NCBI GenBank assembly: GCA_963704145.1
Contig: CAVPHB010000002.1
Coordinates: forward strand, 1,859 to 65,858
Origin: an uncultured Chloroflexia bacterium
Lineage (GTDB): Bacteria > Chloroflexota > Limnocylindria > Limnocylindrales > CSP1-4
Reading direction: 5' to 3'
DNA length: 64,000 bases
Shown here in pieces: positions 5,724 to 32,398 of the stretch (positions are counted from its first letter, which is position 1; each line of letters opens with the position of its first letter). The notes beneath the pieces were generated by a model, which ran no database searches, was not told where the DNA came from, and saw only the letters and a list, made by a program, of their open reading frames with translations. The position numbers were made by a program, and so were the translations under genes.

Positions 5724-5889
5724 CTCCTATCGCACCTGGCAGTGGCACCGTGCCGACATGAGGGATGTCGGTGGTTGCCGGGCCGTCAACGAGCCAGGAC
5801 TCTCGGGCCGCTCTGGATAGGCGCCGCGCGTCTGTGCGCGGCAGCTCCCATTCTACGCTGCGGGTCGGTCGGGGAGACGCCCGCAGAAG

Positions 5890-6829: not shown

Positions 6830-6913
6830 GCCTGCACGGCACGCCCGAGACGCGCTGACCCCGCCGGCTGGTTGAGTCGGTTCGGTGGCTAGACGGGCGC
6901 GGACGGCGCCGGC

Positions 6914-7180
6914 CTATACCTCGCGGTAGATCTTGTCGTGCTCGCGGACGTGGTCGTCGACGTGCAGCGCAACGTCGTCGCCGGGTTTGGCCCGCTCGAT
7001 CGCGGCGTGCTCGACCTGCATCGAGTCGACCGTCTGAACGAGGTTCGTGGTGTGGCCAATGATGTGCACACGCTCGCCCACCGACAGCGGCTTGTCCAAC
7101 GCCACCGCCGCCACTTCAAGGTGGGTGAAGTAGTGGGTCACCGTGCCAATCGCATCGGCCGGATCGTGATCGGTCGCCAT
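6914..7180 (-). CDS. Small EF-Tu-domain-2-like beta-barrel protein
   Basis: 88 aa (GTVTHYFTHLEVAAVALDKPLSVGERVHIIGHTT...) resemble the small translation-elongation-factor-like proteins. Confidence 0.5.
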   Translation of the reverse strand: MATDHDPADAIGTVTHYFTHLEVAAVALDKPLSVGERVHIIGHTTNLVQTVDSMQVEHAAIERAKPGDDVALHVDDHVREHDKIYREV

Positions 7181-7276
7181 CCATCCACCTCCCGCGCTAC
7201 GTTACTCGCTCCGTCCACTCGTTTTCCAGCCCCGCCATGCTCGTGCCGCACGCAGCCCGTGCCCCGCGCCGCCTAC

Positions 7277-8443
7277 CTACCGCCACAGGTCGCCGTATGG
7301 ATGGTCGCCGCGCAGCTGCTTGCCGGCCGCGAAGCGCCCCGGATCGAACATCGAGATGTCTGCACTGGCCGCGGCGCCGTCGAGGATCAGCTCGGCGACG
7401 GCCAGGCCCACCGCGGGCGCGATCTTGAAGCCCGTCCCGGAAAAGCCGGTCTGGAATACCAGCCCGTCCGGGCCGTAGCGGCCGATGATCGCGCGCTGGT
7501 CGGCGGTGATCCCGTCCGTGCCCCCGTGCGAGCCGCGGAACTCGGACTGCGCGAAGGCCGGCACGCGACGGCACAGCCGGTCGACCACGTGGTCGATGAA
7601 GGCTGGATCGCTGGGGCTGTCGTCGCCGGCCAGATCGTCGATCCGGTTGCCGTCCTCCAGGCCGACCAGCGCCAGCGTGTGCCCCTCGGGCCGGAAATAG
7701 AGCTCGTTGATGTCGTCGATGACCGTGGGCAGAGCGCCCTCCAGGGCGTCCGGGCGGGAGACGTAGCCCGTGTCGTGGTGCCAGGCGCGGATCTCCACCT
7801 TGACGCCGGCGGTCGCCGCCAGAGCAGCCGACCAGGCGCCCGCCGCAAGCACGACCACCGGTGCCGAGATCATGCCGCCCGCCATGCGCACACCGACCAC
7901 CCGCCCGTCATCGACCTCGATCGCCTGCACGACACTCGCCTGGCGCAGGACGGCGCCCTTCGCGCGGGCCGCGGCGAGCAGGGAGGTGCACGTGCTGGTC
8001 GGGTCGGCGTAGCCCGAGTCGGGCTCGTAGGCGGCGATGTTGAAGTCGTCGGTCACGAAGCCCGGGGCAAGGCGGGCGACGTCGGCGGCCGACACGACCG
8101 TGGTCGGGATGCCGATCCGCTGCTGGTCGGCCACGTTCGCACGCAGGTTGTCCTCTTGAGCCGGGGGCACGATGCGCACGAAACCGGTGCGCGTGAAGCC
8201 GGCGTCGCCGCCCACGCGCTGGGCCCAGTTGGTGAAGTAGTCGAACGACTTCCAGGCCAGCGCGCTCTCAGCGGCCAAGTCGTAGTGCATGCGCACCAGG
8301 CCGCTCGAGCGACCCGTCGCCGCGGAGCCGGCCACCGTCCGCTCGAGCACCATGACGCGAGCGCCGCGCTCGGCCAGGTGGAAAGCCGTGCTCGCGCCGT
8401 GCACCCCGGCACCGATCACGACGACATCGGCGATCTCGTTCAC
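7277..8443 (-). CDS. FAD-dependent oxidoreductase (DAO / sarcosine-oxidase-beta-like)
   Basis: Contains the ADVVVIGAGVHGASTAFHLAERGARVMVLE dinucleotide-binding fold. Full length, 388 aa, intact. Confidence 0.85.
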   Translation of the reverse strand: MNEIADVVVIGAGVHGASTAFHLAERGARVMVLERTVAGSAATGRSSGLVRMHYDLAAESALAWKSFDYFTNWAQRVGGDAGFTRTGFVRIVPPAQEDNLRANVADQQRIGIPTTVVSAADVARLAPGFVTDDFNIAAYEPDSGYADPTSTCTSLLAAARAKGAVLRQASVVQAIEVDDGRVVGVRMAGGMISAPVVVLAAGAWSAALAATAGVKVEIRAWHHDTGYVSRPDALEGALPTVIDDINELYFRPEGHTLALVGLEDGNRIDDLAGDDSPSDPAFIDHVVDRLCRRVPAFAQSEFRGSHGGTDGITADQRAIIGRYGPDGLVFQTGFSGTGFKIAPAVGLAVAELILDGAAASADISMFDPGRFAAGKQLRGDHPYGDLWR

Positions 8444-8554
8444 CCTCGCTCCTCCTGGCAGCGGTCCGCGTTGGATCAGACGTTAGCCGATCGAGTGTCG
8501 ACTGGGTCTGTGCTCGCACCGCCCGCTTCTCACCAAGGACGTCCATCCAGTCGG

Positions 8555-8805
8555 TGAGTCGGTCTTGTGGATCATCGACAGTCGGAGCTCCCTCTGCCCG
8601 GGCCGGCCGCGCGGGGTGCCGGCCGCGCGGGTGCCGGCCGCGGAGGTGCCGGCCGCGGGGGTGCCGGCCGCGCCGGGTGCCGGCCGCGCGGGGTGCCGGC
8701 CGCGGAGGTGCCGGCCGCGGGGGTGCCGGCCGCGCCGGGTGCCGGCCGCGCGGGGTGCCGGCCGCGCGGGGTGCCGTCCATGCCGCTGAGTCGGTTATGT
8801 GGATC
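8555..8805. repeat. GC-rich minisatellite (about 12 units of GGTGCCGGCCGCGNGG) bounded by two direct copies of the 20-nt core GTGAGTCGGTYWTGTGGATC
   Basis: The cores lie at 8555-8574 and 8786-8805. The 15-16-nt tandem units run from 8603 to 8778 with a higher-order ~63-nt periodicity. Confidence 0.85.
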
Positions 8806-9142
8806 AGTCTTCGAGCAGGCGGGCGAGCGTGGACGTCGCATCTGGGTTGAAGGGGTAAGCGCAGCTGTGCTGGTGCGGGCAGAAGCCGAAAGGAAAGTGC
8901 GGACCGATCGCCGTGGCGATGCGAATGACCCGTTCCGCGATCATGCCGGTGGCCAGTCCGCGCTCAAGGCGCGAGATGCCGCTCTGGCTGATGCCCGACA
9001 GCTCCGCCAAGCGCCGCTGCGACAGTCCAGCCTGGCGCCGACCATTCCGAAACCGGGCACCCACGATCACCATCTCGGGCACGGGCCAGACCAGGTATCG
9101 GCTGCCCTTCCAGGGGGTGCGCGCCCACGGGCCACCTTGCAT
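8804..9142 (-). CDS. XRE-family HTH transcriptional regulator
   Basis: GLSQRRLAELSGISQSGISRLERG helix-turn-helix. The alternative start at 9073 (MVIVGARFRNG) is more plausible. The stop codon lies inside a repeat core. Confidence 0.75.
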   Translation of the reverse strand: MQGGPWARTPWKGSRYLVWPVPEMVIVGARFRNGRRQAGLSQRRLAELSGISQSGISRLERGLATGMIAERVIRIATAIGPHFPFGFCPHQHSCAYPFNPDATSTLARLLED

Positions 9143-9203
9143 CGACCCATGAAAGCAGACGGCTCTTGTCGGTCGCTTACCCCCGACTCATCGCCCAATG
9201 CAT

Positions 9204-9640
9204 GATCCACGTAACCGACTCACTGCCGGGCAATGGTGCGCGAGCCCTACGGACAACGTATGGCGGCTCGGGACGACCTGATCCACGTAACCGACTCACT
9301 GCCGGGCAATGGTGCGCGAGCCCTACGGACAACGTATGGCGGCTCGGGACGACCTGATCTACGTAACCGACTCACTGACCGGGAGCTGGTGCCCGAGCCC
9401 TACGGACAAACGCATGGCGGCTCGGGACGACCTGATCCACGTAACCGACTCACTGACCGGGAGCTGGTGCGCGAGCCCTACGGACAAACGCATGGCGGCT
9501 CGGGACGGCCTGATCCACGTAACCGACTCACTGACCGGGAGCTGATACCCGAGCTCATTCGCAAGAACGGTCTTCGAACTCCGTGACGGGCAATGGTGCG
9601 CGAGCCCTACGGACAACGTATGGGGGCGCACCGACCCGAC
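9204..9640. repeat. Tandem array of five 76-78-bp units plus a partial sixth, each carrying the inverted core GATCCACGTAACCGACTCAC
   Basis: Core copies start at 9204, 9280, 9356, 9434 and 9512. There are two unit subtypes, (..GCAATGGTGCGCGAGCCCTACGGACAACGTATGGCGGCTCG..) and (..GAGCTGGTGCSCGAGCCCTACGGACAAACGCATGGCGGCTCG..). A partial unit lies at 9585-9630. Confidence 0.9.
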
Positions 9641-9641
9641 C

Positions 9642-11045
9642 CTAGTGGCGCGCGAGCCGCTCCTCGAGCGATCGGCCGCGGGGCGGCTGCCCAGACTGCT
9701 CGGACAGGCGGTCGACCCGGCCGAGGGCGGCCTGGGCGAAGCGCACGCCGAGCCAGCGCAACGGCTCGGGCTCCCACGCACGCGAGCGGTGGCCGACCAG
9801 CGGCAGCGCGGTGCGCGCGGTCTCTTGCCCGGTGATCAGCTCGGCCAGCGTTCGGCCACTGAGGTTGGCGGTCGAAACGCCGTGGCCGACGTAGCCGCGG
9901 GCGGTCGCCACCCCGGCAGCCCGGTCAAGGGCGATGGTTGGATGCCAGTCGCGCGGCATGCCCAGCGGACCGCCCCAGGCGTGGCTGAAGCGGACGCCGT
10001 GGCGGGCCAGCGCCGGGAACCACTCGCGCGCCAACGAGCGCAGCATCTCGTGCGTCGGTTCGTGCAGGTCGTACTCGTCGCGGATCGGCGACCCGAAGCG
10101 ATATGGCGCGCCACGGCCGCCGAACAACAGGCGGCCGTCGGACGTGCGCGACAGATAGACGACGGTGTAGCGCGGCGAGCCGATCAGTTCGTGCCCCTGC
10201 CAGCCGATCTCGGCCCACACAGCGTCGGGCAGCGGCTCGGTCAGCACGATCAGCGACCAGATCGGAATGAGCGAGCGATGCAGGCGGCGCAGGCGTGTCA
10301 GGTAGGCCTCGCCGGCGAGGACGATCGTGTCGGCCGTCACCGATCCACGGCGGGTTAGCAGCGCAGGCGGCGCATACGCCGACCGCGGCTGGAAGTCGGT
10401 GACCCCCGTCTGCTCGTGGATCGTGGCGCCCATGCGCTCGACCACCCGGGCCAGGCCGCGCGCCAGCTTGGCCGGCTGGATGGCCGCGGCGTCGGGCGTG
10501 AACAAGGCGGCCGTGGCTCGGCCGATGCGCAGGTGCGCGGAGAGTGCCGGTCCGTCGAGGAGCTGGTAGCGCGAGGCGAAGCCGAAGCGGTCCAGCTCGG
10601 CGAACTCGTCCTCGAGCTGGGGCGTCTCGTGCGGGCCGCGGGCGACAATCAGCTCGCCGCCGCGCCGCCAGTCGATATCGATCCCCTCCTCCACGGCCAC
10701 GCGGCCCACCTGGTCGACTGCCTCGAAGACTGCCTCGTACGTTGCCCGCGCGGCGTCGAAGCCGTGCAGCTTCTCCAGCCGGCCGAGCGAGATGTTGAGC
10801 CCCGGCGCGCACCACGCCCCGTTGCGTCCCGACGCGCCGAAGCCACAGATGTCGCGCTCCACGATCACGACGCGCAACGACGGCTGTGCGCGCAACAGGT
10901 AGTAGGCCGTCCACAGGCCGGTGTAGCCAGCGCCGAGGATGGCCACGTCGGCGTGGACGGATCCGTCCAAGGCCGGCCGCGAAGTCAGGTCATCGCCACA
11001 CGATTCGAGCCAGAACGAGACCAACGAGTAGTCGCGCGTGGTCAC
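9642..11045 (-). CDS. FAD-dependent oxidoreductase (PuuB/OrdL-like DAO family)
   Basis: ADVAILGAGYTGLWTAYYL...GFGASGRNGAWC and the C-terminus GYVGHGVSTANLSGRTLAELI. The start is set at GTG 11045. The longer ORF extension to 11549 is antisense to the divergent ALDH gene. Confidence 0.8.
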   Translation of the reverse strand: MTTRDYSLVSFWLESCGDDLTSRPALDGSVHADVAILGAGYTGLWTAYYLLRAQPSLRVVIVERDICGFGASGRNGAWCAPGLNISLGRLEKLHGFDAARATYEAVFEAVDQVGRVAVEEGIDIDWRRGGELIVARGPHETPQLEDEFAELDRFGFASRYQLLDGPALSAHLRIGRATAALFTPDAAAIQPAKLARGLARVVERMGATIHEQTGVTDFQPRSAYAPPALLTRRGSVTADTIVLAGEAYLTRLRRLHRSLIPIWSLIVLTEPLPDAVWAEIGWQGHELIGSPRYTVVYLSRTSDGRLLFGGRGAPYRFGSPIRDEYDLHEPTHEMLRSLAREWFPALARHGVRFSHAWGGPLGMPRDWHPTIALDRAAGVATARGYVGHGVSTANLSGRTLAELITGQETARTALPLVGHRSRAWEPEPLRWLGVRFAQAALGRVDRLSEQSGQPPRGRSLEERLARH

Positions 11046-11109
11046 GGTGATTACGATACGTGTACCCAGCACATCACAACCGAGCCTTGTTGCAGCAGAG
11101 GTCACCACC

Positions 11110-12563
11110 ATGACGCTTACGGCCACGCGTCGCAGCATGTTCATCAACGGAGAGTGGACGGACGCGGCGAACGGCGAAACGACATCGGTCATCAACCCCG
11201 CGACCGAGGAGGCCATCGGCGACGTGCCCAAGGGCGCCGAAGCCGATGCCGACCGCGCCGTGTCGGCCGCCCGGGCAGCGTTCGAGGACTGGTCGCAGAC
11301 CACCCCCGGCGAGCGGAGCCTGATGCTCTGGCGCTGGGCGCAGAAGATCGAGGACAGCAAGGCCGAGCTGTCGGCGCTCGAGTCGGCCAACGTCGGCAAG
11401 CCCAAGGGCGTGGCCGACTTCGACATCGACTTCAGCGTCGACAACCTGCGCTTCTTCGCCGGTGCCGCGCGCGTGCTCGAGGGCAAGGCGGCGGGCGAGT
11501 ACACCAAGGGCTGGACGAGCATGATCCGGCGTGAACCGGTCGGCGTCATCGGCCAGGTCGCGCCGTGGAACTACCCGTTGATGATGGCCATCTGGAAGCT
11601 CGGCCCGGCCCTCGCCGCGGGCAACACGGTGGTCCTCAAGCCGGCCTCGAGCGACGCCGCTGACCGCGCTGGCACTGGCCGAGCTGGCCGCCGACATCTT
11701 CCCCAAGGGCGTGCTCAACGTCATCACCGGGCCGGGCATGACGCTCGGCCAGCAGGCTGATGACGCACCCTGAAGTGGACATGGTCTCGCTGACCGGCGA
11801 CACGGCGACGGGCATCGAGATTGCCGCGGCGGCGGCACAGACGGTCAAGCGCGTCCACCTGGAGCTGGGCGGCAAGGCGCCGGTGGTGGTGTTCGACGAC
11901 GCCGATCTGGGCGCCGTGGTCGAGGCGGTCAAGCTGGCCGGCTTCTTCAACTCGGGCCAGGACTGCACCGCCGCGACGCGGATAATCGCGGGGAGTGGCG
12001 TCTACGAGAAGTTGCTCGCCGATTTAGTGCCGGCAATCCAGTCGCTCAAGGTGGGCAACCCGGCCGACGCCGAGGATCTCGACATGGGCCCGCTCGTGAG
12101 CGCCAGCCAGCGCGAGCGAGTGGCCGGCTACGTCGACCGGGCGCGCGGCTACGGTGCGAGCGTCGTGCTCGGCGGCGGCAGCGGTGCGCACGGCAACGGT
12201 CGCGGCTTCTTCTACGACCCGACCGTCGTGACCGACATCGGCCAGGACTCGGAGATCATCCAGCAGGAAGTGTTCGGCCCGGTCGTCACCGTGCAGCGCT
12301 TCAGCGACGACGAGGAGGCGATCCGCTGGGCCAACGGCGTCCCGTTCGGCCTCGCGTCGTCGGTCTGGACGCGCGACGTCAAGCGGGCACTCAACGCCGC
12401 GCGACGGTTGCGCTACGGGACGGTGTGGATCAACGACCACCTGACGATCGCGTCGGAGATGCCGCACGGTGGCTTCGGCCGCTCGGGCTACGGCAAGGAC
12501 ATGGGCATGTACTCGATCGAGGACTACACGATCGTCAAGCACGTCATGGCCAAGATCAGCTGA
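11110..12563 (+). pseudogene. patD: Gamma-aminobutyraldehyde dehydrogenase-like ALDH (PatD/YdcW-like), disrupted by two +1 frame changes
   Basis: It aligns along its whole length with the recalled E. coli YdcW/PatD (FFAGAARVLEGKAAGEY, APWNYPLMMA.WKL.PALAAGN.VVLKP, ELGGKAP, EMPHGG...SGYGKD). The frame moves 1 to 2 near 11653 and 2 to 3 near 11756. Confidence 0.85.
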
Positions 12564-12582
12564 CCGGCGAGCTCGTCCCCCG

Positions 12583-15498
12583 ATGACTGGCGGGCTGCCG
12601 ACCGGCGTCGTGACCTTTCTGTTCAGCGACGTCGAGGGCTCGACCAAGCTCCTGCACGAACTGGGCGACGGCTACGCCGCTGCGCTGCACGAGCATCGCC
12701 GCCTGCTCAGAGGGGCATTCGCGGCGCACGACGGCGTCGAGGTCGACACCCAGGGCGATGCCTTCTTCGTGGCCTTCGGCCGCGCGTCGGACGGCGTCGC
12801 CGCAGCGATCGACGCGCAACGCGCCCTGGCGGCCGGCCCGATCAAGGTCCGCATCGGCCTGCACACGGGCGAGCCGCGCCTGACTCCGGAAGGCTACGTC
12901 GGGCTCGACGTCCACAAGGGCGCGCGCATCGCCGCCGTGGGCCATGGCGGCCAGGTTCTGGTGTCGCAGGCGACGCGCGCGCTGGTCGAAGCCAGCGTGC
13001 GCGATCTCGGCCCGCATCGCCTGAAGGACCTGACCGCGCCCGAGCGCATCTTCCAGCTCGAGATAGAGGGCCTGCCGTCCGACTTCCCGCTGCTCAAGAC
13101 GCTCGAGGCGGGCATGCGCAACCTGCCCGCCGCGCGCACCTCGTTCGTGGGCCGCGAGACGGAGCTGGGTGAGATAGACAGGCTGCTGGGCGAGCCCGAC
13201 TGTCGGCTGCTGACGCTCGTCGGGCCGGGCGGCACGGGCAAGTCCAGGCTGGCCCTCGAGGCTGCCGGACGACGGATCGAGCACTACCCGCACGGCGTCC
13301 ACTACATACCCCTCGCCGGAGTGCCCGAGCCGGGCCTCCTCGCACCGGCCGTGGCCGAGGGACTGCAGTTCCAGGTCGACTTCGCCCACAGCGCCATACC
13401 TGCTCGCGATCAACTGGTCGATTACCTGCGCGATCGCTCGGCGCTGCTCGTGCTTGACAACTTCGAGCACCTGCTCGACGCACGAGACGTGGTCACGCAG
13501 ATCATCGACGAGGCGCCGCTGGTCGAGCTGCTGACCACATCGCGCGAGCGGCTGCAGGTGCAGAGCGAGTGGGTCATCGATGTGGCCGGGCTCGAGTTCG
13601 TTCCCGGCAACGGGCACGCTTCCGGTAACGGGCACGCTTCCGGTAACGGGCACGGCAGCGGGCACGGCAGCGGGCGCGGCAGCGGCAACGGTCACGCTGC
13701 CGACAGCCCGGCGACCCGGCTGTTCGTCGATCGCGCTCGGCACGTCGATCCGGCGTATGCCCTGACCGAAGCGGAGCGTCCGCACGTCGAGCGCATCTGC
13801 CGGATCGTCCACGGCATGCCGCTCGGCATCGAGCTTGCCGCGGCCTGGGTGTCGATGCTGTCGGCGGCAGAGATCGCCGACGAGATCGAGCGCAACCTCA
13901 GCTTCCTGCAGACCACCATGGCCGACGTGCCCGAGCGTCACCGCAGCCTGCGGGCGGCGTTTGACCAGTCGTGGCGGCTGCTCGCCGATGATGGGCGGCG
14001 CGTGTTCGCCCGGCTGTCCATCTTCCGCGGTGGCTTCACCCGCGAAGCAGCAGCAGCCGTGGCCGAGGCGGGCATCGTCCAGCTGCACGATCTCGTCGCC
14101 AAGTCGCTCGTGCGCCGGACCGAGCTGGGTCGCTTCGAGCTGCACGAGTTGCTGCGCCAGTACGCCGCCGAACGGCTGGCGGAGACAGCCGACGGGCAAG
14201 CCGCCACTGCCGAGCGACATGGCCGTTACTACGTCGGCATGCTCGGCGAGCGAAGAAGCGCGCTTGCGGGCCCGGGAATGGCCGAGGCGCGCGATGAGTT
14301 GCGCCGCGATCTCGACAACCTCCGCCTGGCGGCCGAATGGGTGGTCGGTCATGGATCCGATCAGGAGTCGTTTGCCCTGACGGCCGCACTCGGTCTGTTC
14401 TTCTTCGTCCACGGGCCATTCGAGGGCGCCCAGACGTTCGAGCGCCTGGCAGAGGCGGTGGGCGTGACGGGAGGCGTCGCAGTCGACCCGGCTTCGGTCT
14501 CCGATGCTGCGTTGTCTGTTCTCACCCACTGGGCGGTCGTGCGCACCGACCTGGGCTACGACGAGGAGACGGAGCAGCTGCTGCTCGCCCTCGTGCCCGT
14601 GCTGCGCGAGCGCGACCTGCGCGCCGACCTCGGCTACGCACTCTATGGATCTGGCGTCGTGGCTTGTTACGAGGACGTCTACGCCGATTCTGCGCGCTTC
14701 CTCGAGGAGGCAATTCCCCTGCTCAGGGCGGCGGGCGACCTGTTCTATGTGGGGGCCGCGCTGTCGTGGCTGGGCTTCGTCCGCTTGTTGCAGAACGATC
14801 TCGAGGCCGCGGGCAGGAACTTCAGGGAGTGTGATGCGGTCGCGCGCGAGTGTGGTCAGCCGCTCACACGCGCCTATGCGACGAGCAAGCTCGGCATCCT
14901 GGCCGATGCCGAGGGCCGTTACGCCGAGGCGATGCGCCTGCACATGGAGGCCAACGCCCTGTTCGAGAGCGTGGGCGACGTGGGCGGCACGGGCTACACG
15001 CTCAGCCGGGCCAGCCTGAGCGCGTTCGGCGTGGGCGACTTCGGCGAGGCGCTGCGCTTTGGGCGAGCCGGGTACGAGGCCTTCCGGCAGGTCAACCACC
15101 GCTGGGGCATGATCGGCGGGCTGTGCCGGATCGGTTTCGCAGAATTCGCTCTCGGCAGCAGTGACGAGGCACGCGATCACCTGCGCGACGCGCTCAGCCG
15201 TGCCCGCGAGTCCAAGGCGATCTCGCTCGAGCTGCTCGCCCTGAGCGGGATCGGGGCGGTGCTCGCCAAGGGTGATGATCCGAGCCGAGCCGCGCTGCTG
15301 CTCACGTTTGCGCTCGGCCACGAACAGCTGCCGGCCGCGTACGGTTTCGCCGCGCGGCCGGCGCTGGACGCGCTCGAGGCGTCGCTGACAGCCGACGAAC
15401 TGGCCGCCGTGCGCGAGGCAGCAGCCACGGCCGACCTCGACGAACTGGTGGCCAACGTGCTTGGAGAGCACACCCTGATTGGAGGTGGCAGCCCATGA
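12583..15498 (+). CDS. Class III adenylate/guanylate cyclase domain - AAA/NB-ARC ATPase - TPR (STAND-type) protein
   Basis: Cyclase signature VVTFLFSDVEGSTKL...VDTQGDAFFVAF...IGLHTGE and a Walker A motif LVGPGGTGKSRLA. The C-terminal region is helical and repeat-rich. 971 aa, intact. Confidence 0.85.
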   Translation: MTGGLPTGVVTFLFSDVEGSTKLLHELGDGYAAALHEHRRLLRGAFAAHDGVEVDTQGDAFFVAFGRASDGVAAAIDAQRALAAGPIKVRIGLHTGEPRLTPEGYVGLDVHKGARIAAVGHGGQVLVSQATRALVEASVRDLGPHRLKDLTAPERIFQLEIEGLPSDFPLLKTLEAGMRNLPAARTSFVGRETELGEIDRLLGEPDCRLLTLVGPGGTGKSRLALEAAGRRIEHYPHGVHYIPLAGVPEPGLLAPAVAEGLQFQVDFAHSAIPARDQLVDYLRDRSALLVLDNFEHLLDARDVVTQIIDEAPLVELLTTSRERLQVQSEWVIDVAGLEFVPGNGHASGNGHASGNGHGSGHGSGRGSGNGHAADSPATRLFVDRARHVDPAYALTEAERPHVERICRIVHGMPLGIELAAAWVSMLSAAEIADEIERNLSFLQTTMADVPERHRSLRAAFDQSWRLLADDGRRVFARLSIFRGGFTREAAAAVAEAGIVQLHDLVAKSLVRRTELGRFELHELLRQYAAERLAETADGQAATAERHGRYYVGMLGERRSALAGPGMAEARDELRRDLDNLRLAAEWVVGHGSDQESFALTAALGLFFFVHGPFEGAQTFERLAEAVGVTGGVAVDPASVSDAALSVLTHWAVVRTDLGYDEETEQLLLALVPVLRERDLRADLGYALYGSGVVACYEDVYADSARFLEEAIPLLRAAGDLFYVGAALSWLGFVRLLQNDLEAAGRNFRECDAVARECGQPLTRAYATSKLGILADAEGRYAEAMRLHMEANALFESVGDVGGTGYTLSRASLSAFGVGDFGEALRFGRAGYEAFRQVNHRWGMIGGLCRIGFAEFALGSSDEARDHLRDALSRARESKAISLELLALSGIGAVLAKGDDPSRAALLLTFALGHEQLPAAYGFAARPALDALEASLTADELAAVREAAATADLDELVANVLGEHTLIGGGSP

Positions 15499-16754: not shown

Positions 16755-16945
16755 CCGGCGGCACCCGCCGACCTGACCAGGGGGATCCGCCGACCCGACC
16801 TGAGCAGGGGGGATCCGCCGACCCGACCTGGGGACGTCCTACCTGCCGGTGAGTCGGTTACGTGGACCAGCCGGCGGTGCCGGGCCCGCGATGGGGCGCG
16901 AAGTGATCTGCCTAACTGACTCACTGACCGTCAGGCAGGCGCGCC
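16755..16945. repeat. Composite repeat: ~26-bp direct repeats (GGGGATCCGCCGACCCGACCTG, about 2.5 units) plus a hairpin-type copy of the 20-nt core family
   Basis: A direct core lies at 16849-16868 (GTGAGTCGGTTACGTGGACC) and an inverted variant at 16905-16924 (GATCTGCCTAACTGACTCAC). The outer arms CCTGCC/GGCAGG extend the pairing. Confidence 0.8.
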
Positions 16946-16967
16946 AAGCCGGGGCTGGCTGAAGGAT

Positions 16968-20489: not shown

Positions 20490-20549
20490 AGCCGACCGCC
20501 CTTCCGTGTCACGCTATCGTTGACGGGAACCTGGCACAGGAGTTGACCG

Positions 20550-22002
20550 ATGAAGACCACCCCGGCAGCGATCGATCGTCAGCGAATCAAGCGCATCGGC
20601 GACGCGCGAGGAGGCCGAGTACCGGCGCCGAACGCCAAAGTCGGCCGCGCTCCACGAGCGCGCCAAGAGGGCACTGCCGCTGGGCGTGGCCAGCTCGTTC
20701 CAGTCGTACGAGCCTTACCCGCTCTTCATGACCGACGCGCGCGGATCGCGCATCAGGGACGTCGACGGCAACGAGTACATCGACTTCGACATGGCCTTCG
20801 GCGTGCTCGCCGCCGGCCACTCGCACCCCGATGCTTCGCCGAGGTCCTGGCGCGCGCGCGTCGCGAACGGCACCTGCTACACCTTCCCGGTCGAGGACGG
20901 CATCATCCTGGCCGAGGAGATCAAGCGCCGCTTCGGCTGCGACCTGGTGCGCTTCTCCAACTCCGGCACCGAGGCGACGATGGACGCCATCCGCGTCGCG
21001 CGCGGCTTCACCGGCCGCGAGAAGCTGCTCAAGTTCGAGGGCGGCTACCACGGCCACCACGACGACGTGCTCGTGTCGATCCAGCCGCCGCGCGAGCTGA
21101 TCGGGCCCGGCAGAGGCGCCGAGCGACCGTCCCGGCCTCGGCCGGACTGCCGCGCTCGCGCGTCGATGAGACGGTCGTCGCGCCGTACAACAATCCCGAG
21201 GCGCTGGAGGCGATCCTCGACCGCCACCGCGGGCGAGATCGCGGCGATCATCGTCGAGCCGGTGCAGTTCAACATCGGCGTCGTGCCGCCGCTGCCCGGC
21301 TTCCTGGAGCGCGTGCGCGAGCTGGCCACGGCGCACGGCAGCGTGCTCATCTTCGACGAGGTCAAGACCGGGCGTGGTGCTCGCCTACGGTGGCGCGACC
21401 GAGTGGTTCGGCGTCAAGCCCGACCTGTTCTGCCTGGCCAAGAGCATCGGCGGCGGCGTGCCGATCGGCGCCTTCGGCGGCCGCGGCGAGGTCATGGGCG
21501 TGATCGAGCGGCTGCCCGAGTCGCGTCTGGCCGGGGCGACACGGGCACCGCCCTGGAGCACTCGACCATCCCCGGCGGCGCCACGCGCGTGGCCCACCTG
21601 GGCACGTTCAACGGCAACCCGCTGTCGATGGCCGCCGGCGTGGCGGTGCTGACGCGCATCCTGACCCGCGACGTCTACCCCCGACTGCAGGCCATGGGCG
21701 ACCGACTGACCGCCGGCTGCCAGGCGGTGGTCGACGAGTTCGGCCTGCCCGGCTACGCGGTCAACGTCGGCCCCAAGGGCTGCGTCATGTTCACGCCCGG
21801 TCGCGGGTGACCAACTACCGCGACTTCATCGGCCTCGACTCCGAGCTGTGGGCAGGCGTCGTTCTTCTACCTCGCCAACCGCGGCATCCTCCTGCCGCCC
21901 GGACCGGACGACCAGTGGACGCTGTCCGTTCAGCACACCGACGCCGAGGTCGACCGCTACGTCAGCACCTTCCGCGACTTCGCCGCCGAGCTGACCGCCT
22001 GA
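20550..22002 (+). pseudogene. Class III aminotransferase (glutamate-1-semialdehyde aminomutase-like), at least 7 frame changes
   Basis: Recognisable pieces sit in alternating frames: [86 protein letters not shown] and [15 protein letters not shown]. Confidence 0.8.
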
Positions 22003-22018
22003 CCGTCGCTGGCTGTCC

Positions 22019-22113
22019 GTGAGTCGGTTATGTGGATCTGTTGGGCGGTCGACGGTACGGCGCCCGGTGAGGCCGGCCGCGCAGCAAGGTGGTGATCTGC
22101 CTAACCGACTCAA
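22019..22113. repeat. Hairpin (MITE-like) copy of the 20-nt core family
   Basis: GTGAGTCGGTTATGTGGATC at 22019-22038 faces GATCTGCCTAACCGACTCAA at 22094-22113. It lies between two convergent aminotransferase genes. Confidence 0.8.
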
Positions 22114-22187
22114 CGACGGATTGGGGCCAGAGACAACGGCTGCGGACGGCCCGGCGCGGGCCCGGGGGAAGCGACTGGAGACCCGGC

Positions 22188-23535
22188 TCAGGCCACCGGT
22201 AGCGACTCGCCGATGATCGCGATCGCCTGATCGATCTCTGCGTCGGTCGTGACCAGCGGCGGGATCACGCCGCACGACCTGACCGTAGGTGCCGCAGGTC
22301 AGCAGCAGCAGCTTGCGGTCGAAGGCATCGTGGAGCAGCCCCTTGGCCAGGTCCGGGCCGCGGCTGCAGCGTGCCGGGCTCGGCGAACTCGATCGCGGCC
22401 ATCAGGCCGCGGCCGCGCACCTCGGCGACGTAGGGCTTGCCCGCCGTCGACGCGCTGCAGGCCGGCCAGCAGCCGCTCACCCTGCCGCGCGGCGTTGGCG
22501 ACCAGGCCCTCGTCCTCGAACACGTCGAGCGTCGCCAGCGCCGCGGCACAGGCGACGGCGTTGCCACCGTACGTGCCACCGTGCGAGCCGGGCGCGAACG
22601 CCTCGAGCAGCGACCGGCGGGCCATGATGCCCGACAGCGGCAGGCCCGGAGGCGATGCCCTTGGCCATGACGACGACGTCGGGCCACGGCGGCGGTCCAC
22701 TCGGTCGCGAAGAAGCGGCCCGTGCGGCCGTAGCCGGTCTGGATCTCGTCGACGATGAGCAGGATGCCGTGCTGGTCGGCCACCTCGCGCAGCGCCGGCA
22801 GGAAGCCGTCTGAGGGGACCACGTAGCCGCCTTCGCCCAGGATCGGCTCGACCAGGAACGCGGCCACGTCGTCGGGATAGGCCATCGTCGCGAACAGCTC
22901 GTCGATCGCGGCCATGGTGCTGCTCGAGCGCCACTGACGCGCGCCGTCGCCCAGACGCAGCGGATCGGGGAACGGGACGAAGTGCACGCCGCCGGGGAGT
23001 GGCTCGTAATGGCCGCGGTACTTGACGCCGCTGCTGGTGAGGGCCATCGTGCCGTGCGTTCGGCCGTGGAAGCCGCCCCGGAAGGCGACGATCAACGGCC
23101 GCCGCGTGGCGATCTTGGCCAGCTTGACCGAGGCCTCGATCGCCTCGGCACCGGAGTTGGACAGGAACAGGCCGAACTCGGATCGCGGGCGCGGCGGCGC
23201 CGGGAAGAGCCGCGGCAGTCGGTCGTGCAGCTCCAGGCCGGGCTGGTGGTAGAGGATGTTCTGCTGGGCGTGGATGATCTTGGCCGCCTGCTCGGCGATC
23301 GCCGCCGCAACCCGCGGATGGGCGTGGCCGGTGTTGGTCACGCCGATGCCGCTGGTGTAGTCGAGATAGCGCTCGCCGTCGATCGTCTCGATCCACGAAC
23401 CGCTGCCGCGTTCGACGACAAGGTCGGTGTAGCGCGCCCAGACGGGCGCGACGCCGTCGCGCAGGGCCAGCCACGCGGCGGCTCGGCTGGGCGGCGGCGG
23501 CCTGTGTCGGCAGTTGGCTGTGCGGTGACGACCAT
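22188..23535 (-). pseudogene. Class III aminotransferase (GABA/putrescine/acetylornithine-type), at least 3 frame changes
   Basis: YLDYTSGIGVTNTGHAHP, LSNSGAEAIEASVKLA, DEIQTGYGRTGRFFA, GLPLSGIMAR and SHGGTYGGN appear in different frames. The ATG at 23535 and TGA at 22188 were inferred. Confidence 0.8.
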
Positions 23536-23537
23536 GG

Positions 23538-24394
23538 TTACACCTCGGTCGGTCGCTGGTCGAGCGGCTCGCTGCCGGCGCGCCCGACCAGATCTGGAGC
23601 AGCGATGAACAGCGCCAGGCGACGAGCAAAGATGAGCGTGCCCAGCACGTTGACCTCGGGCGGCACGCCGAAGCGGCGAGGCGCCGTAGACCCACAGCGG
23701 GAAGGTCACGCGTCTGCCCGGCGACGAACGAGGTGATGACGTAGTCGTCGATGGACAGCGCGAAGGCGAGCAGCGCGGCGGCCAGGATGCCCGGGAAGAT
23801 GAGCGGCAAGGTCACCTTGCGGAAGGTCGTCCACTCGTCCGCGCAGAGGTCCATCGCCGCCTCCTCGAGCGCGCGGTTGAAGCCGGCGATGCGCGCGCGC
23901 ACGGTGACCACGACGAAGCTGATGTTGAACATGACGTGGGCGATGACGATGGTGGTCAGGCCGCGCTGGGTGCCGAGGCTCACCCACAGCGCCAGCAGCG
24001 AGGCGCCCAGGATCACCTCCGGCGTGGCCATGGGCACGTAGATGAGCAGGTTCAGCGGGCCGCTGCCCGCGGAACTGGTAGCGCGTCAGCGCCAGGCCGA
24101 TGAGCGTGCCCAGGATGGTCGCCACGATCGGTCGCCACGATGGCCACGATGAGGCTGTTGAGCATCGGGCCCGGTGATGTCCGGGCGGTTCCAGACGGTG
24201 AGCGTAGTTCTCGATCGTGAAGCCCTGCCAGGTGATGTTCTGGCGGCCGCAGCGGGTCGTTGAACGAGAAGGCGATCATGACCGCGATGGGCAGGAACAG
24301 GTAGAGCACCGCCAGCGCCGTGTAGCAGCCGGCAGAGACCGCCCGCGACAGGCGCTGGCGCGAGCGGCGGCCGGCGCATCGACATGGCGGTCAT
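23538..24394 (-). pseudogene. ABC transporter permease (PotC-like), multiple frame changes
   Basis: MATILGTLIGLALTRYQFRG, PEVILGASLLALWV and EEAAMDLCADEWTTFRKVTLPLIFPGILAAALLAFALSIDDYVITSF sit in different frames. The start overlaps the upstream stop codon (ATGA). Confidence 0.75.
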
Positions 24395-25251: not shown

Positions 25252-25294
25252 CCCGGCCCTCGGTCAGCTGGCTGCCGCCACGGCCGTAGCCGGC

Positions 25295-26608: not shown

Positions 26609-27761
26609 TGGCTGTTCCTCCTCCGGCTTGGATGACGAAGGTGTGCTGCGGCTTCCAGCTCAGCACGCACCGCGCTGGCCGGCCGAGAGCTGATCGCCGG
26701 CACCGCTCACCTCGATGTTCTGGCTGTAGACGACGACGTCGTGGCCGTCGTCGGTGCGGACGACGTACTGCGTGCTGACGCCGACATAGCTGGCGTCGAG
26801 GACGCTGCCGTCGAGCGAGTTGCTGGCTCAGCGGCGTCTCAGACGCGCCGGGCTCGGCTCGTCGAGCTGCGATCAGGTGCAGCTTCTCGGGCCGCACCCC
26901 GACCTGCACGCGCGTCGCCCTGGCGCAGGCCGTCGGCCGGCGCGCGCACCCGCGTGCCCGACGTCGAGCTCGAGCGCGACCATGTCTCGCATCGCGCCCG
27001 ACGACAGTCGCCGGCAAGCAGGTTGCGACACGCCCAGGAAGCCGGCCACGAACGCGGTCGCCGGGCGCTCGTAGAGCTCCTCCGGGCCGCCCAGCTGCTC
27101 GATCCGGCCGGCGCGCATGACGGCGATGCGGTCGGACATCGTCATCGCCTCATCCTGGTCGTGGGTGACGTAGACGAAGGTGATGCCGACCTCGGTCTGG
27201 ATGCGCTTGAGCTCGAGCTGCATCTGCTTGCGCAGCTTCAGGTCGAGCGCGCCGAGCGGCTCGTCGAGCAGCAGCACCTCGGGGTGGTTGATCAGCGCCC
27301 GGGCCAGCGCGACGCGCTGCTGCTGGCCGCCGGACGAGCTGGCTGGGCTTGCGCCGCTCGTAGCCGGGCAGCTCGACCAGCTCGAGCATCTCACCCACCT
27401 GGCGGCTGATCTCGTCGCCGTCCGACCTTGCGCCGGCGCAGGCCGAAGGCGACGTTCTCGAAGACGTTCAGATGCGGGAAGAGGGCGTAGTTCTGGAAGA
27501 CCGTGTTGACGTCGCGCTTGGTAGGGCGGCCGATTGGTGACGTCCGCCTCGCCCAGGATAGATCGGTGCCGGCGCGTCGACCTCCTCGAAGCCGGCGATC
27601 ATGCGCAGCGTCGTCGTCTTGCCGCAGCCCGACGGGCCGAGCAGCGAGAAGAACTCGCCGCTGCTCGATGTCGAGCGACAGGTCGTCGACGGCCACGACA
27701 TCGTGAAAGCGCTTGGTGACTCGGTCGAGCCGTACGTCGGTCTGGGCCAAGCCAACCTCAT
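26601..27761 (-). pseudogene. ABC transporter ATP-binding protein (PotA-like), multiple frame changes
   Basis: Walker A ([25 protein letters not shown]), signature and Walker B ([31 protein letters not shown]) and VRPEKL sit in different frames. An alternative start is TTG 27750. Confidence 0.8.
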
Positions 27762-28675: not shown

Positions 28676-29612
28676 AGCGACTCGAAGGCGCCCAGGCGCC
28701 GAGCGAGCAGAAGGTAGACGATCATGATCGCCGATCGGTACGAGCGAGTAGGCCGCGGCCAGGGGCAGGTTGACGTTGGCCGAGTTGTCATAGATCACGT
28801 TGCCGATGAACTTCGCGTCCGAGACCAGGTCGGGCGTGATGTAGTCGCCCAGGGTCAGCGAGAACGAGAAGATCGAGCCGGCCACGAGCGCCGGGAAGAC
28901 GAGCGGCAGGACGACCCGCCGGAAGGTGGTCAAGGCTGCGCGCCGCCCAGGTCGGCCGATGCCTCGAGGAGCGAGTTCGGGATGCGCTCAAGGCCAGCGT
29001 AGACGGGCAGGATCATGTAGGGCAGCCACAGGTAGCTGAGGACCAGCCACGAGTTGAGCTCAGCCGGATAGACCCGGGCCGCTGCATGCCAAATGGGCGT
29101 CGAGCAACCAGTCGACCAGGCCGTTGCCCTGCAGGATGATGCGCCACGAGTAGACCTTGACCAGGTACGCCGCCCAGAGTGGGATGAGCACGGCGACGAC
29201 GAGAAAGCCGCGCATCCGTGGCGATGCGATGCGCGCCATGTAGTAGGCGATGGGGATGGCCAGCAGCGCGTCGGTGATGGTCACGAGCACCGCCATGCCG
29301 ACATCGTCCGTATCGGCGATGGTGCCGTAGACCGCGTTGCTGACCAGCGTCTCGAAGGCGGCGAGCGTCCAACTGAACGGCTCGACGCGGCCGGTGAACG
29401 CGTCCTTGGCCCAGAGCGAGTTAAGTAGCAGGATGAGCGAGCGAGCCGAGATAGGCGATCAGCAGCCAGCCGACCGGCCCGGCCAGCAGCGGCGCGCAGC
29501 TGCACGCCGCGGCGCGGTGCAGCCACGATCCGAGGCGACGACGCAGGCTGCGCTGTGGCGCCGGCCTCGAGTACCTCGGGGGTCGTGAGTCGGGACGGTC
29601 GACTAGGCTCAT
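28672..29612 (-). pseudogene. ABC transporter permease (PotB-like, second operon), multiple frame changes
   Basis: AVLVTITDALLAIPIAYYMARIASPRMRGFLVVAVLIPLWAAYLVKVYSWRIILQGNG and TTFRRVVLPLVFPALVAGSIFSFSLTLGDYITPDLV sit in different frames. Confidence 0.75.
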
Positions 29613-29676
29613 GCGCTTCCTAGAGTCGAGGGCTCCCCGGCTTACGCTCGGGGAGCCCTTGAAGCGGTGTTCCGGA

Positions 29677-30912
29677 TTAGCGGATCAGCTGCCGCGCAGC
29701 GTGGTCCATGCCTGGACCCAGTCGTCCTGGGCTCTTGCACGTGGTCGCCGCGTCGTCGTCGGCGCAGTCGGCCTGTGGGGTGCTCCAGTACCAGATCGTT
29801 GTCCCAGTAGGCTTCGTCATCGGCGTGCGCAGATGCGCAGTGACCGGGCGACAGCGTCTCGGCGAACTCGCACGCCTGTGGGCTGGTCGCGCCTCGCCGA
29901 ACCAGACCGTGCGCCTGCGACGTTCGCCTCGGCCGACATCATGTGGTCCATCCACATGAGCATGCAGTTCGGATGTGCTGCGTTCTTGGCCATCATCCAG
30001 GTGTCCGACCAGCCGGTCGAGCCCTCGTCGGGCTGCACGCCAGCAATCGGCCGACGCCGTCGCCTGGAGCAGGTTGGACCTGAAGCTGCCACGTCGTGCC
30101 GACGACGACGTCGCCGGCGGCATACGACGCGATCTGGTCGGTGTAGGTCGCCCCAGTACAGCGGCGCGTTGGCCTTCTGTGCGTCGAGCAGCGCGATCGC
30201 TGCCGCGAATTGCTCTTCGTTGAGCTGATACGGGTTGGTAGATGCCCAGCTCGGGCTGCGTGGCCATCAGGTGCACCGCGGCGTCGGCGATGTAGATCGA
30301 CGAGTCGTAGATGCTGATGTCGCCGGCGTAATCCGAGCCGCCTTCCCACACCGGCGTCCCAGCTGGTGGGCGCCTCGGTTACCAGCATCGGTGTTGTACA
30401 TGAGCAGGTTCGGCACCACGTCCGTGCGGCACGCCGTAGTTGACGCCGTCGACGGTGTTGTGCGGCAGGTCCTTGAGGCCGTCAAAGACGTTGGCGTAGT
30501 TGGGCAGCATCGACGTGTCGATCGGGGCGACGTAGTCGCCCGAGATGAGCCGCGTCGTCGCGTCGCCCGAGGCCGAGATGCCGTCGTAGTTGCCCGACTG
30601 GATTAGTGAAACGCCGTTGTTCGAGTCGGTCATGTCGGTCGTGTTGACGGCACAGCCCGTTCGCTCTTCGAACGGCGTCACCCAGTCATAGGCCGGGTCG
30701 ACTGCGCCGCGCTCGGCGTAGCCAGCCCAGATGACCAGGTTGAGCGCGCCCTCGCCCGGGCCAATGCCGGCAGGCGTTGGTACGGCCGTTGGTGCGGCCG
30801 TTGGTGCGGCCGTTGGTGCGGCCGTTGGTGCGGCCGTTGGTGCGGCGCCGGCACAGGCCGAAGCCACCAGCGCGGTGATGGCGATGAACCCCCAGATGCG
30901 TCGGTTGGTCAA
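29677..30912 (-). pseudogene. Polyamine-type ABC substrate-binding lipoprotein with an (APTA)n linker, frame changes in the C-terminal two thirds
   Basis: TTG start, lipobox ALVASAC, an (APTA)5 linker, then LNLVIWAGYAERG...FEERTGCAVN. Later pieces are in other frames. Confidence 0.75.
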
Positions 30913-32025
30913 GACTCCTCCTTGTCGTGGATGCCCTCGTGGGTGAGTGTCAGATTATGAATGCGTTTCCAGGTCAGGCGCACCCTTTTTTCTTCGAGTG
31001 CGAGCGCCTCTGACGAAGATGTGGCCAGATTCTGTTGGGCGACGACCAGTTGCGCGCCCGCGTCAAGCTCGACGATGTAGCGTGTTTCGTGGCCCAGGTA
31101 GATCACCTTGCCGATGTGGCCGAGGGCCGAAACCTCGTCGGCTGCCGGCTGGTCGTCCGGCTCGACCAGGCGGATCTTCTCCGGTCGGACGGTGAACGTC
31201 CCGGCGTGGCCGACGATCGCCCGGGCGACTTCGCCGCTGAGCAGGTTGGACGTCCCCACGAAGCCGGCCACGAATTGGGTCGCGGGGCGCTCGTAGACGT
31301 CGGCCGGGGTGCCGATCTGCTCGATCCGGCCGTGGTTGAAGACGGCCAGCCGATCGGACATCGTCAGCGCCTCGCCCTGGTCGTGGGTGACATAGATGAA
31401 GGTGATGCCGACCTGCTGCTGGATCTGCTTGAGCTCGATCTGCATCTCCTCGCGCAGGCGCAGGTCGAGCGCGCCCGAGTGGCTCGTCGAGCAGCAGCAC
31501 GCGCGGCCGGTTGACCAGCGCTCGGGCGAGCGCGACGCGCTGGCGCTGGCCGCCCGACAGCTGGCCCGGCTGGCGCTGCTCGTAGCCTTCGAGGCGGACC
31601 ATGCGCAGCGCCTCCTCGACCCGAGTCTCGACGCGTGGCGCGGTCGACCTTGCTTGATCATCAGGCCGTAGCCGACGTTGTCGCCGACCGTCATGTGCGG
31701 GAACAGCGCGTAGTCCTGGAAGACGGTGTTGACGTCGCGCTCGAACGGCGGCACGTTGGTCACGTCCTGGCCGTGGAGCAGGATGCGGCCGCTGCGTCGG
31801 CAATTCGAAGCCGGCGATCATGCGCAGCGTCGTGGTCTTGCCCGAGCCGGACGGGCCGAGCATCGAGAAGAACTCGCCGTCGCGCACCTCGAGGTCGATG
31901 CCGGCCACGGCGACGACGTCGCCGAAGTGCTTGACGACGTGCTCGAGCTGCACGGCCAGCGACGGTGCGTCACGGGGCGCGCCGGGCGCGCCTGATTGCC
32001 CTCTCGTATCAGCGGCCAGCGCCAC
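30909..32025 (-). pseudogene. ABC transporter ATP-binding protein (PotA-like, second operon), frame changes in the middle
   Basis: [25 protein letters not shown] (one frame) and DVNTVFQDYALFPHMTV...ITFIYVTHDQGEALTMSDRLAVFNHGRIEQIG...VRPEKI (another frame). Confidence 0.8.
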
Positions 32026-32149
32026 AACCCCTCCGAACCGGTGAAGTAGGGCGACTATCAGCGCAGGCGCAGGCGACTGTCAAGCGCTGGCTGAGCGCAC
32101 GCGGGTCCAGCGGCGCGGGTTGGCGCCGATCCGGTCATGCACCTGGTCC

Positions 32150-32398
32150 ACGAGTCGGCTAGGTGGATCAAGGCGGCGGCTGGTCCGCCGCGGCTGGTCC
32201 GCGGCGGCTGGCTTGCGCGAGTCGGTTATGTGGATCAAGGCGGCGGCTGGTCCGCCGCGGCTGGCCCGCCGCGGCTGGCTTGCGCGAGTCGGTTATGTGG
32301 ATCAAGGCGGCGGCTGGTCCGCCGCGGCTGGTCCGCCGCGGCTGGCTTGCGGCGGACCAAGTGCGGGTCCGGGCCAGTGATCCACGAAACCGACTCAA
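32150..32398. repeat. Three direct 67-bp units, each starting with the core (G)CGAGTCGGYTAKGTGGATC, closed by one inverted core
   Basis: Direct cores lie at 32150-32169, 32217-32236 and 32284-32303. The inverted core GATCCACGAAACCGACTCAA lies at 32379-32398. The unit bodies are GC-rich GCGGCTGG repeats. Confidence 0.9.

Follow-up and report, generated by a model that had tools for sequence, protein, structure and literature searches.

What kind of element is a 20-nt sequence that recurs between the genes of a bacterial genome, here as a solitary copy, there as an inverted pair and elsewhere as a head-to-tail array? The question is posed by a 64,000-nt stretch of the 394-kb contig CAVPHB010000002.1 (the whole stretch is hereafter called the window), derived from an uncultured Chloroflexia bacterium of the Limnocylindrales. 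The core of the repeat, GTGAGTCGGTTACGTGGATC, has no internal dyad on direct reading, and copies of it flank a small gene for an XRE-family DNA-binding protein. We propose that the core is the conserved end of a REPIN/BIME-like family of hairpin-forming intergenic repeats, specific to Limnocylindria-like Chloroflexota and coupled to an XRE protein similar to the controller (C) proteins of restriction-modification (R-M) systems, which would bind the conserved half of the core. We give this proposal about as much credence as doubt. It draws on the anatomy of the repeats, on the bracketing of the XRE gene by cores in relatives, and on the divergence of core and protein.

Anatomy of the core repeat and its elements

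With up to 3 mismatches allowed, the pattern GTGAGTCGGTTAYGTGGATC matches the window 12 times against 0.00 expected (100 shuffles). At up to 5 mismatches, all 15 clear copies and the one degenerate copy reported by the first-pass annotation are recovered, and an nhmmer profile built from the core copies returns the same 16 and no others across the 64 kb, the next match having E=0.25. Plus-strand copies start at 6872 (degenerate), 8554, 8786, 16849, 22019, 32150, 32217 and 32284, and minus-strand copies at 9204, 9280, 9356, 9434, 9512, 16905, 22094 and 32379; only the first clear copy had to be moved, from 8555 to 8554. All of them are confined to 6.8-32.4 kb, with none found by the profile search in the other 38 kb. 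The degenerate solo core (TTGAGTCGGTTCGGTGGCTA, 6872-6891, plus strand; nhmmer E=0.0015) lies 43 nt upstream of the start of the minus-strand open reading frame (ORF) 6317-6829. A variant solo sequence, GTGAGTCGGGACGGTCGACTAGG (29583-29605, plus strand), resembles the core type of one relative, L026 (..GTCGACTA), and is possibly a 17th copy, although its status is uncertain.

The core copies of the window are non-coding, as the first-pass annotation held. The ORFs that overlap them lack the GC excess at third codon positions (GC3) that is the mark of a real gene at the 70% GC of this genome, and none of them matches Pfam. The sole contact with a credible gene is a 2-nt overlap between the copy at 8786-8805 and the XRE stop codon.

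The most elaborate arrangement surrounds the XRE gene. Read on the strand of that gene (9531-8554), the module consists of five forward cores in 76-78-bp units, a 62-nt leader, the XRE gene, an inverted core, a minisatellite and a second inverted core. The five tandem units (9203-9544, minus strand; 78-bp units x4.4 according to Tandem Repeats Finder, TRF) each combine a core with a GC hairpin, lie between the end of a DAO oxidase gene (9642) and the XRE start, and are followed by a coreless partial unit reaching to about 9640. The gene itself (8804-9142, minus strand) encodes 112 aa and is present in a single copy in the window. The XRE stop codon comes from the inner end of the adjoining core (8786-8805, plus strand), which reads TGATCC on the strand of the gene. 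The GC minisatellite (8602-8776; TRF: 16-nt unit x11.2, 62-nt super-unit) separates this core from the outermost downstream copy (8554-8573, plus strand), which is likewise inverted relative to the XRE sense strand and stands 111 nt upstream of the start of a DAO gene (8443).

Three further elements, scattered through intergenic DNA nearby, display the layout of the XRE module minus the gene, that is [forward]n ... [inverted]m with GTGAGTC ends outward. Elements C (16849-16924, plus strand, 76 bp) and D (22019-22113, plus strand, 95 bp) are inverted core pairs with one forward and one inverted copy each; the former lies between convergent saccharopine dehydrogenase and cyclase/AAA_16 genes, the latter between two convergent aminotransferase genes. 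Element E (32150-32398, plus strand, 249 bp) has three forward cores in 67-bp units (TRF: x3.0 at 32151-32351) and one inverted core, and occupies the divergent region between ABC-transporter genes on the minus strand and a Gfo/Idh/MocA gene on the plus strand. Hairpin folding yields z-scores of -5.4 for D, -6.9 for E and -1.8 for C, while two same-orientation units of the array upstream of XRE show no unusual folding (z = -0.02).

The first-pass annotation had described these arrays correctly, except that it gave the minisatellite a period of 15 nt instead of 16 (and 62) nt; since frameshifts in this sequence are typical of long-read assembly, exact repeat-unit lengths are to be taken with some caution. 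Its statement that the sequence attached to the core differs wholly between loci does not hold: the 17 nt outside copies 8554 and 16849 are identical at 13/17 positions (GGACGTCC...), and elements C and D have the right-arm variant GATCTGCCTAAC in common. Short GC-rich minisatellites with 14-22-nt units adjoin cores in the window (8602-8776, 32176-32345) and in two relatives (L026, 320-380; L028, 2860-2900 and 10480-10840), and core sites seem to favour local tandem duplication.

Bracketing, copying and co-divergence in relatives

Does the association of core and gene extend beyond the window? The window XRE protein has 36 close homologues, of which we fetched all those on longer contigs and the closest one. 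Eight orthologous loci were compared (the window, L024, L026, L027, L028, L029, L031 and L034), the sequence compared being 64 kb for the source genome and roughly 20 kb for each relative; the orthologues are 41-77% identical to the window protein. In 8/8 loci a genome-specific core, often in tandem units of 22-87 bp, stands in inverted copies on the two sides of the XRE gene, and in 5/8 the first downstream core overlaps the XRE stop codon. The general layout has forward cores, frequently multiplied in tandem, ahead of the gene and inverted ones behind it, beginning at or beside the stop codon. The core reads GTGAGTCGGTTCTGCGGATC in L027, GTGAGTCGGTTTGTTGACTA in L026, GTGAGTCGCTTTACTGACTA in L028, GCGAGTCGGTTAGATGCATA in L029 and GTGAGTCGGAATACGCATGA in L034; that of L031, CTGAGTCTCCGATTGGACTC, has short dyad ends (GAGTC...GACTC), and that of L024, CTGAGTAGAGTCGCCTACTCAG, is the only full palindrome among the variants. 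The XRE gene is the only gene found between core termini in the window and in the examined stretches of relatives, and GTGAGTC ends point outward in 12/14 elements. The first-pass annotation treated confinement of the core to the window as fatal to its account; variants occur on at least seven other contigs. Indirect support comes from the XRE homologues, most of which lie on contigs of 0.5-4 kb, as expected if flanking repeats break short-read assemblies.

Scans for the exact window core returned 8 matches in GTDB species genomes, 14 in JGI metagenome contigs and 5 in viral contigs, each a single match; the eight that we opened, from genomes and metagenomes, all fall inside ORFs, and the matches in these two collections look like chance. 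These scans do not prove absence, as an exact match in L027 (JGI 3300046710) was not returned. A plasmid collection searched for the core gave weak coding matches only, and literature searches, by core string and on Chloroflexota repeats, gave nothing relevant. Comparison of near-identical contigs (L031/L032/L033 and L029/L030) for array-length polymorphism revealed no indels at all and is uninformative.

The XRE module lies between different neighbour genes in different genomes, so that gene and cores move as one unit; in L026 and L028 it occupies the exact site of window element D. The gene has the same gene neighbourhood in six genomes, while in L029 and L034 the module sits in unrelated contexts. 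Directly downstream of the L029 module and its inverted cores is a gene for a 342-aa reverse transcriptase (RVT_1; 10614-11642), which could be a retron-like or other reverse-transcriptase element, or a coincidence. Gene-less pairs or arrays are found in L027 and L028 as well, a few kb from the XRE module. Two dispersed elements of L027 are homologous over their whole length of ~110 bp, including the interior and about 30 nt outside the left core; what spreads is thus the element and not just a binding motif.

Copying of whole elements recalls miniature inverted-repeat transposable elements (MITEs), and the first-pass annotation had indeed suggested that the core could be a MITE terminus. In such a case an ordinary MITE family would be mobilised in trans by a transposase encoded elsewhere, and the XRE gene would be a captured passenger, as in a mobile insertion cassette, or would sit in an insertion hot spot. 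Much of the anatomy agrees: inward-pointing pairs of ~20-nt inverted termini on small, strictly intergenic, hairpin-forming elements (C, D and E, at 76, 95 and 249 bp, all have terminal inverted repeats on non-coding elements of 50-500 bp), the coexistence of gene-bearing and gene-less versions, the whole-element homology in L027 and the changing position of the XRE module. With 64 kb of genome visible, a transposase could also lie elsewhere. However, no target-site duplication was found, as no direct repeat of at least 2 nt abuts the termini of C, D, L027:14923-15072 or L027:17520-17597, and the 45 window ORFs tested contain no transposase or recombinase domain. The interiors of the window copies are completely different rather than conserved, the termini are multiplied in tandem arrays, and the XRE gene is single-copy in the window. 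A passenger or hot-spot link, moreover, would not be expected to last in 8/8 genomes down to 41% identity with termini that co-diverge. An ordinary MITE family is on balance unlikely, even though the paired termini, the hairpins and the copying of whole elements in a relative bear out part of the earlier suggestion.

That co-divergence is measurable: across pairs of loci, the more alike the XRE proteins, the more alike the cores (Spearman 0.64; Mantel r=0.61, p=0.006). Purifying selection acts on the XRE gene, whose nonsynonymous to synonymous ratio (dN/dS) is 0.17-0.44 at a synonymous divergence (dS) of about 1 or more. Despite saturated synonymous sites, the GAGTCGG half of the core persists, and GTGAGTCGG survives outside coding sequence even in L034, whose orthologue is 41% identical. 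As divergence of this degree should randomise non-coding DNA, the 5' half of the core is held by selection or by continual homogenisation. The CCACA/GATC 3' half drifts, being replaced in the orthologous families by GACTA, GCATA, GCATGA and other variants.

The contrast between the two halves decides against a DnaA-titrating or Dam-related site. The first-pass annotation had considered a DnaA-titrating or other DNA-binding role for the core on the grounds that its reverse complement holds TGATCCACA and GATC. Four window copies (8786, 22019, 32217 and 32284), and only these, contain TGATCCACA, one mismatch from TTATCCACA; most window copies read TGATCCACG instead. The CCACA/GATC half has been replaced in L024, L026, L028, L029, L031 and L034 with the other half conserved, and neither dnaA nor origin features were seen in the window. 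Exactly the DnaA-box-like half is the one that is not conserved; the idea therefore fails, and we find it barely credible. A DnaA-box cluster of the datA/DARS type was rejected on the same two grounds, the four copies within one mismatch of TTATCCACA and the loss of that half in orthologous families.

The XRE protein as a candidate partner of the core

What sort of protein could be paired with such a repeat? The window XRE protein matches only the generic helix-turn-helix (HTH) models HTH_3/HTH_31. Its recognition helix, SQSxISRxERG, is invariant across the orthologue alignment, and an N-terminal WPVPE motif is conserved. The C terminus bears FPFGxCPHxxxC, in which both Cys are invariant and the His nearly so; this motif probably forms a small metal-binding knuckle. 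No Tyr of the tail is invariant: either Y or W occupies the Tyr-like position that follows the second Cys. The subfamily is large (1069 representatives at E<=1e-10), with the CPH-type tail motif in 43/43 of the sequences sampled; the viral relatives are generic HTH proteins without this tail.

In the AlphaFold model the HTH is confident (mean pLDDT 83), and the closest solved relatives by fold and sequence are C.AhdI and C.BclI (PDB 1y7y, 2b5a), followed by ClgR. The operators of C proteins are GACT/AGTC half-sites beside their own gene (PMC2175313), which by analogy offer a lead for GAGTC/GACTC recognition by the XRE protein. The likeness stops short of a shared system: there are no R-M genes near XRE, C proteins lack the CPHxxxC tail, and the sites here have the form GAGTC-N8-10-GACTx or no second half-site, as opposed to GACT-N3-AGTC. 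A C-box system proper was rejected, the spacing of its consensus GACT-N3-AGTC-N4-GACT-N3-AGTC (PMC2175313) being absent from cores and leader and the neighbours being catabolic genes.

Between the last upstream core and the start codon, all eight loci retain a leader motif, GATAAGTC-N4-GATAAGCG-N7-GCTTTCATGG-N5-ATGCA, located at 9146-9195 (minus strand) in the window. It holds an AAGTC/GAGTCGG element, and in the window its first half, GATGAGTCGG, is core-like. Judging from its sequence and position, the motif is a candidate promoter or proximal operator.

We hypothesize that the XRE protein, with its invariant recognition helix and C-protein-like fold, binds the conserved GAGTCGG(TT) half of the core. 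Such binding would explain why this half stays constant while the 3' half drifts with the protein, and the conservation of the GAGTCGG primary sequence, not of pairing alone, points to sequence-specific recognition. Whole elements would be copied to new intergenic sites, and core-bearing units would multiply in place to give arrays, through slippage or unequal exchange and perhaps with help from the bound protein; no account of the arrays is simpler than such events at a site occupied by protein. The likely consequence would be autoregulation or insulation of the XRE gene and of the neighbouring catabolic operons. The first-pass annotation had already entertained a protein-binding site that nucleates arrays, with the XRE gene at 8804-9142 as a candidate. 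The bracketing in all loci and the co-divergence of core and protein strengthen that suggestion. Anatomy, bracketing, co-divergence, constraint on the core and copying of whole elements are what the sequences show; binding by the XRE protein, the origin of the arrays and the physiological role are what we infer from them.

Several observations weigh against this proposal. XRE proteins usually bind dyads, which the window core is not, and the likeness to C proteins is limited to the generic HTH, the recognition residues being different in the alignment. Nor does a 112-aa HTH protein possess any catalytic motif with which DNA could be moved. For elements C and D, each flanked by convergent genes, no role as an operator is obvious. 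L031 and L034, the two most distant loci, have the core turned round relative to the gene. Two further relatives, L023 and L025, show hairpin repeats of the AGTCGG type or related to it, though more diverged, at the site equivalent to D with no XRE gene in the stretch fetched. Clustering of the copies near the XRE gene may be a sampling effect of the lengths of sequence compared. Finally, the co-divergence could reflect plain vertical descent of the gene and its adjacent DNA; since vertical descent also yields co-divergence, the weight falls on the survival of the core where dS is saturated.

The main alternative is purely regulatory and is compatible with the repeat-family proposal. The cores would be operator or roadblock sites of the XRE protein, acting as a local regulator of a polyamine and amino-acid catabolic cluster; there would be no mobility, and the arrays would be products of slippage. 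All window copies do lie within that cluster and none in the remaining 38 kb, the XRE gene keeps its neighbourhood in six genomes, and weak NCBIfam matches of the protein include PuuR, a putrescine-utilisation regulator. Cluster A mycobacteriophages also offer a precedent for a monomeric HTH repressor on asymmetric gene-end sites (PMC9283540), where it blocks elongation according to the orientation of the site. Regulation as the whole explanation nevertheless seems to us improbable, in view of copied elements that exceed a binding site (outer leader and interior are shared in L027), of inward-pointing pairs and hairpin potential that operators do not need, of convergent, tandem and divergent placements about as expected for random intergenic sites, and of the unrelated gene contexts of the module in L029 and L034.

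Could the repeats act as RNA instead? Stem-loops in 3' or 5' untranslated regions might terminate or stabilise transcripts, the association with XRE being secondary. The strong predicted hairpins and the positions at gene ends are in keeping with such a role, as are the arm differences of C and D, which on direct reading give G-U-compatible pairs on the plus strand. The G-U asymmetry, however, is inconsistent in L027 on direct reading, and we discarded it as evidence for RNA stems. No U-tracts follow the stems; Rfam at the gathering threshold has no match at the repeats, its sole window match being a SAM riboswitch; same-orientation arrays, such as the five units upstream of XRE, fold unremarkably, as noted above; and the conservation of GAGTCGG goes beyond pairing alone. 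A function at the RNA level is very improbable.

A bolder form of the proposed coupling is a non-enzymatic partnership, in which an XRE/C-protein-like DNA-binding protein is the long-term partner of REPIN-like hairpin repeats, its gene residing inside one element, its recognition site forming the element ends, and both co-diverging over long distances. The bound protein might then drive local array expansion and dispersal, for example through fork stalling and template switching. We offer this tentatively, as a possibility we would bet against. Given the size of the XRE-CPH subfamily, repeat systems of this class, so far unrecognised, could be widespread in high-GC Terrabacteria.

Known repeat systems, genomic setting and significance

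The reference system for repeats linked to a gene is that of repetitive extragenic palindromic (REP) sequences and REPINs with their REP-associated tyrosine transposases (RAYTs) (PMC3116915, PMC3337134). By the definition of a REPIN (PMC3337134), inverted doublets with a short spacer and tandem arrays are both present here. The two systems are alike in their short intergenic repeats, in inverted doublets of about 70-110 bp that form hairpins, in arrays of up to about five units, and in a single-copy gene flanked by its own cognate repeats, each version of the gene being paired with its own repeat type and inheritance looking vertical. They differ in that the flanked gene here encodes a 112-aa XRE HTH protein (HTH_3/HTH_31 only, with a C-protein-like fold) devoid of HUH or catalytic-tyrosine motifs and not an HUH/Y1 transposase, and in that the single window core is neither an imperfect palindrome nor provided with a GTAG head. 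A separate, classical-looking REP family exists in the window besides. It consists of GC hairpins at 754-2888, unrelated to the core (e.g. GCAGCAGGGGTCTGACCCCTGGTGCAAT at 760, 1596, 2270 and 2856), that flank a broken ORF (about 1643-2260) with the motifs GWHHVMNRG and HAYC..FHL. The motifs look RAYT-like, but Pfam and PDB sequence searches gave no support, and we rejected this ORF as a RAYT.

Enterobacterial BIMEs are likewise intergenic arrays of a conserved short motif with variable linkers; here copies of one orientation follow each other until inverted ones close the array, without the strict alternation of BIMEs, and the sequences are unrelated. Cluster A mycobacteriophages offer a small HTH repressor with many asymmetric intergenic stoperators, often at gene ends, where site and repressor co-diverge (PMC9283540). 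Their 13-bp single sites are phage-borne and oriented by transcription, whereas the present ones are chromosomal and occur as inverted pairs, arrays and copied elements; the resemblance seen is one of layout. Other candidates were dismissed on anatomy. A CRISPR array does not fit, as whole 67-78-bp units, including the sequence between cores, repeat at 95-96% identity and the tested ORFs have no cas domains. Integron attC sites, imperfect palindromes that open with RYYYAAC and close with GTTRRRY, do not fit either: on both strands GTT here precedes AAC, each having 8 nt beyond it, and no integrase was found. An iteron or partition-site reading was also rejected on anatomy.

The core copies sit inside a catabolic cluster with two DAO oxidases, an aldehyde dehydrogenase, a saccharopine dehydrogenase, two class-III aminotransferases, PotABCD-like ABC genes and large cyclase/AAA_16 proteins. 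Synteny of this cluster is preserved in relatives, and the closest relatives of one window protein are 80-83% identical and come from Chloroflexota / Candidatus Limnocylindria metagenome-assembled genomes. Two of the genes encode large adenylate/guanylate cyclases with AAA_16/NB-ARC and TPR domains (STAND-like; 12469-15498, plus strand, and 16968-20489, minus strand). The second of these is placed elsewhere in the neighbourhood of relatives, so that the position of element C marks the junction of a rearrangement. The gap separating the convergent aminotransferase genes has a different insert in each genome and is a hot spot of intergenic turnover: element D in the window, the XRE module in L026 and L028, an ArsR-like ORF with another tandem repeat in L024 (12700-13290), and other hairpin repeats in L023 (12690-12900) and L025 (2790-2900).

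Many window genes contain compensating frameshifts or in-frame stops, apparently at homopolymers (11038-12563, 20554-22002, 22265-24037 and 24-31 kb). A break at 11760 splits the aldehyde dehydrogenase, the ABC-transporter genes are in pieces, and an aminotransferase has out-of-frame stretches and a stop at 21808-21810 beside a G run. This looks like long-read homopolymer error and not decay. Elsewhere in the window, the SAM-I riboswitch (5724-5823, minus strand, 54.5 bits) lies upstream of the ORF ending at 5723. ARAGORN reports a 97-nt tRNA-Leu at 26803-26899 and a tRNA with undetermined anticodon at 30783-30861; both are probably false positives, since there is no Rfam tRNA at the gathering threshold and the second coincides with a 12-nt tandem repeat (CGTTGGTGCGGC x6).

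What would the pairing of core and XRE gene mean? To our knowledge, interspersed hairpin repeats are tied to a cognate gene in essentially one known case, that of REPINs and RAYT transposases. If true, the present pairing would be a second and independent one, with a plain DNA-binding protein, and would imply that long-lived repeats can be maintained without a dedicated transposase. One small protein and one 20-bp site would also provide a testable handle on the origin of bacterial tandem arrays and dispersed copies. On the practical side, the repeats appear to break short-read assemblies of Limnocylindria-type Chloroflexota exactly at the XRE gene, and the arrays would be natural strain markers of the variable-number tandem-repeat kind for an abundant uncultured lineage of soil and freshwater. 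Should the XRE protein be only a local regulator, the finding would still define the probable operator and regulon of the polyamine-catabolism cluster.

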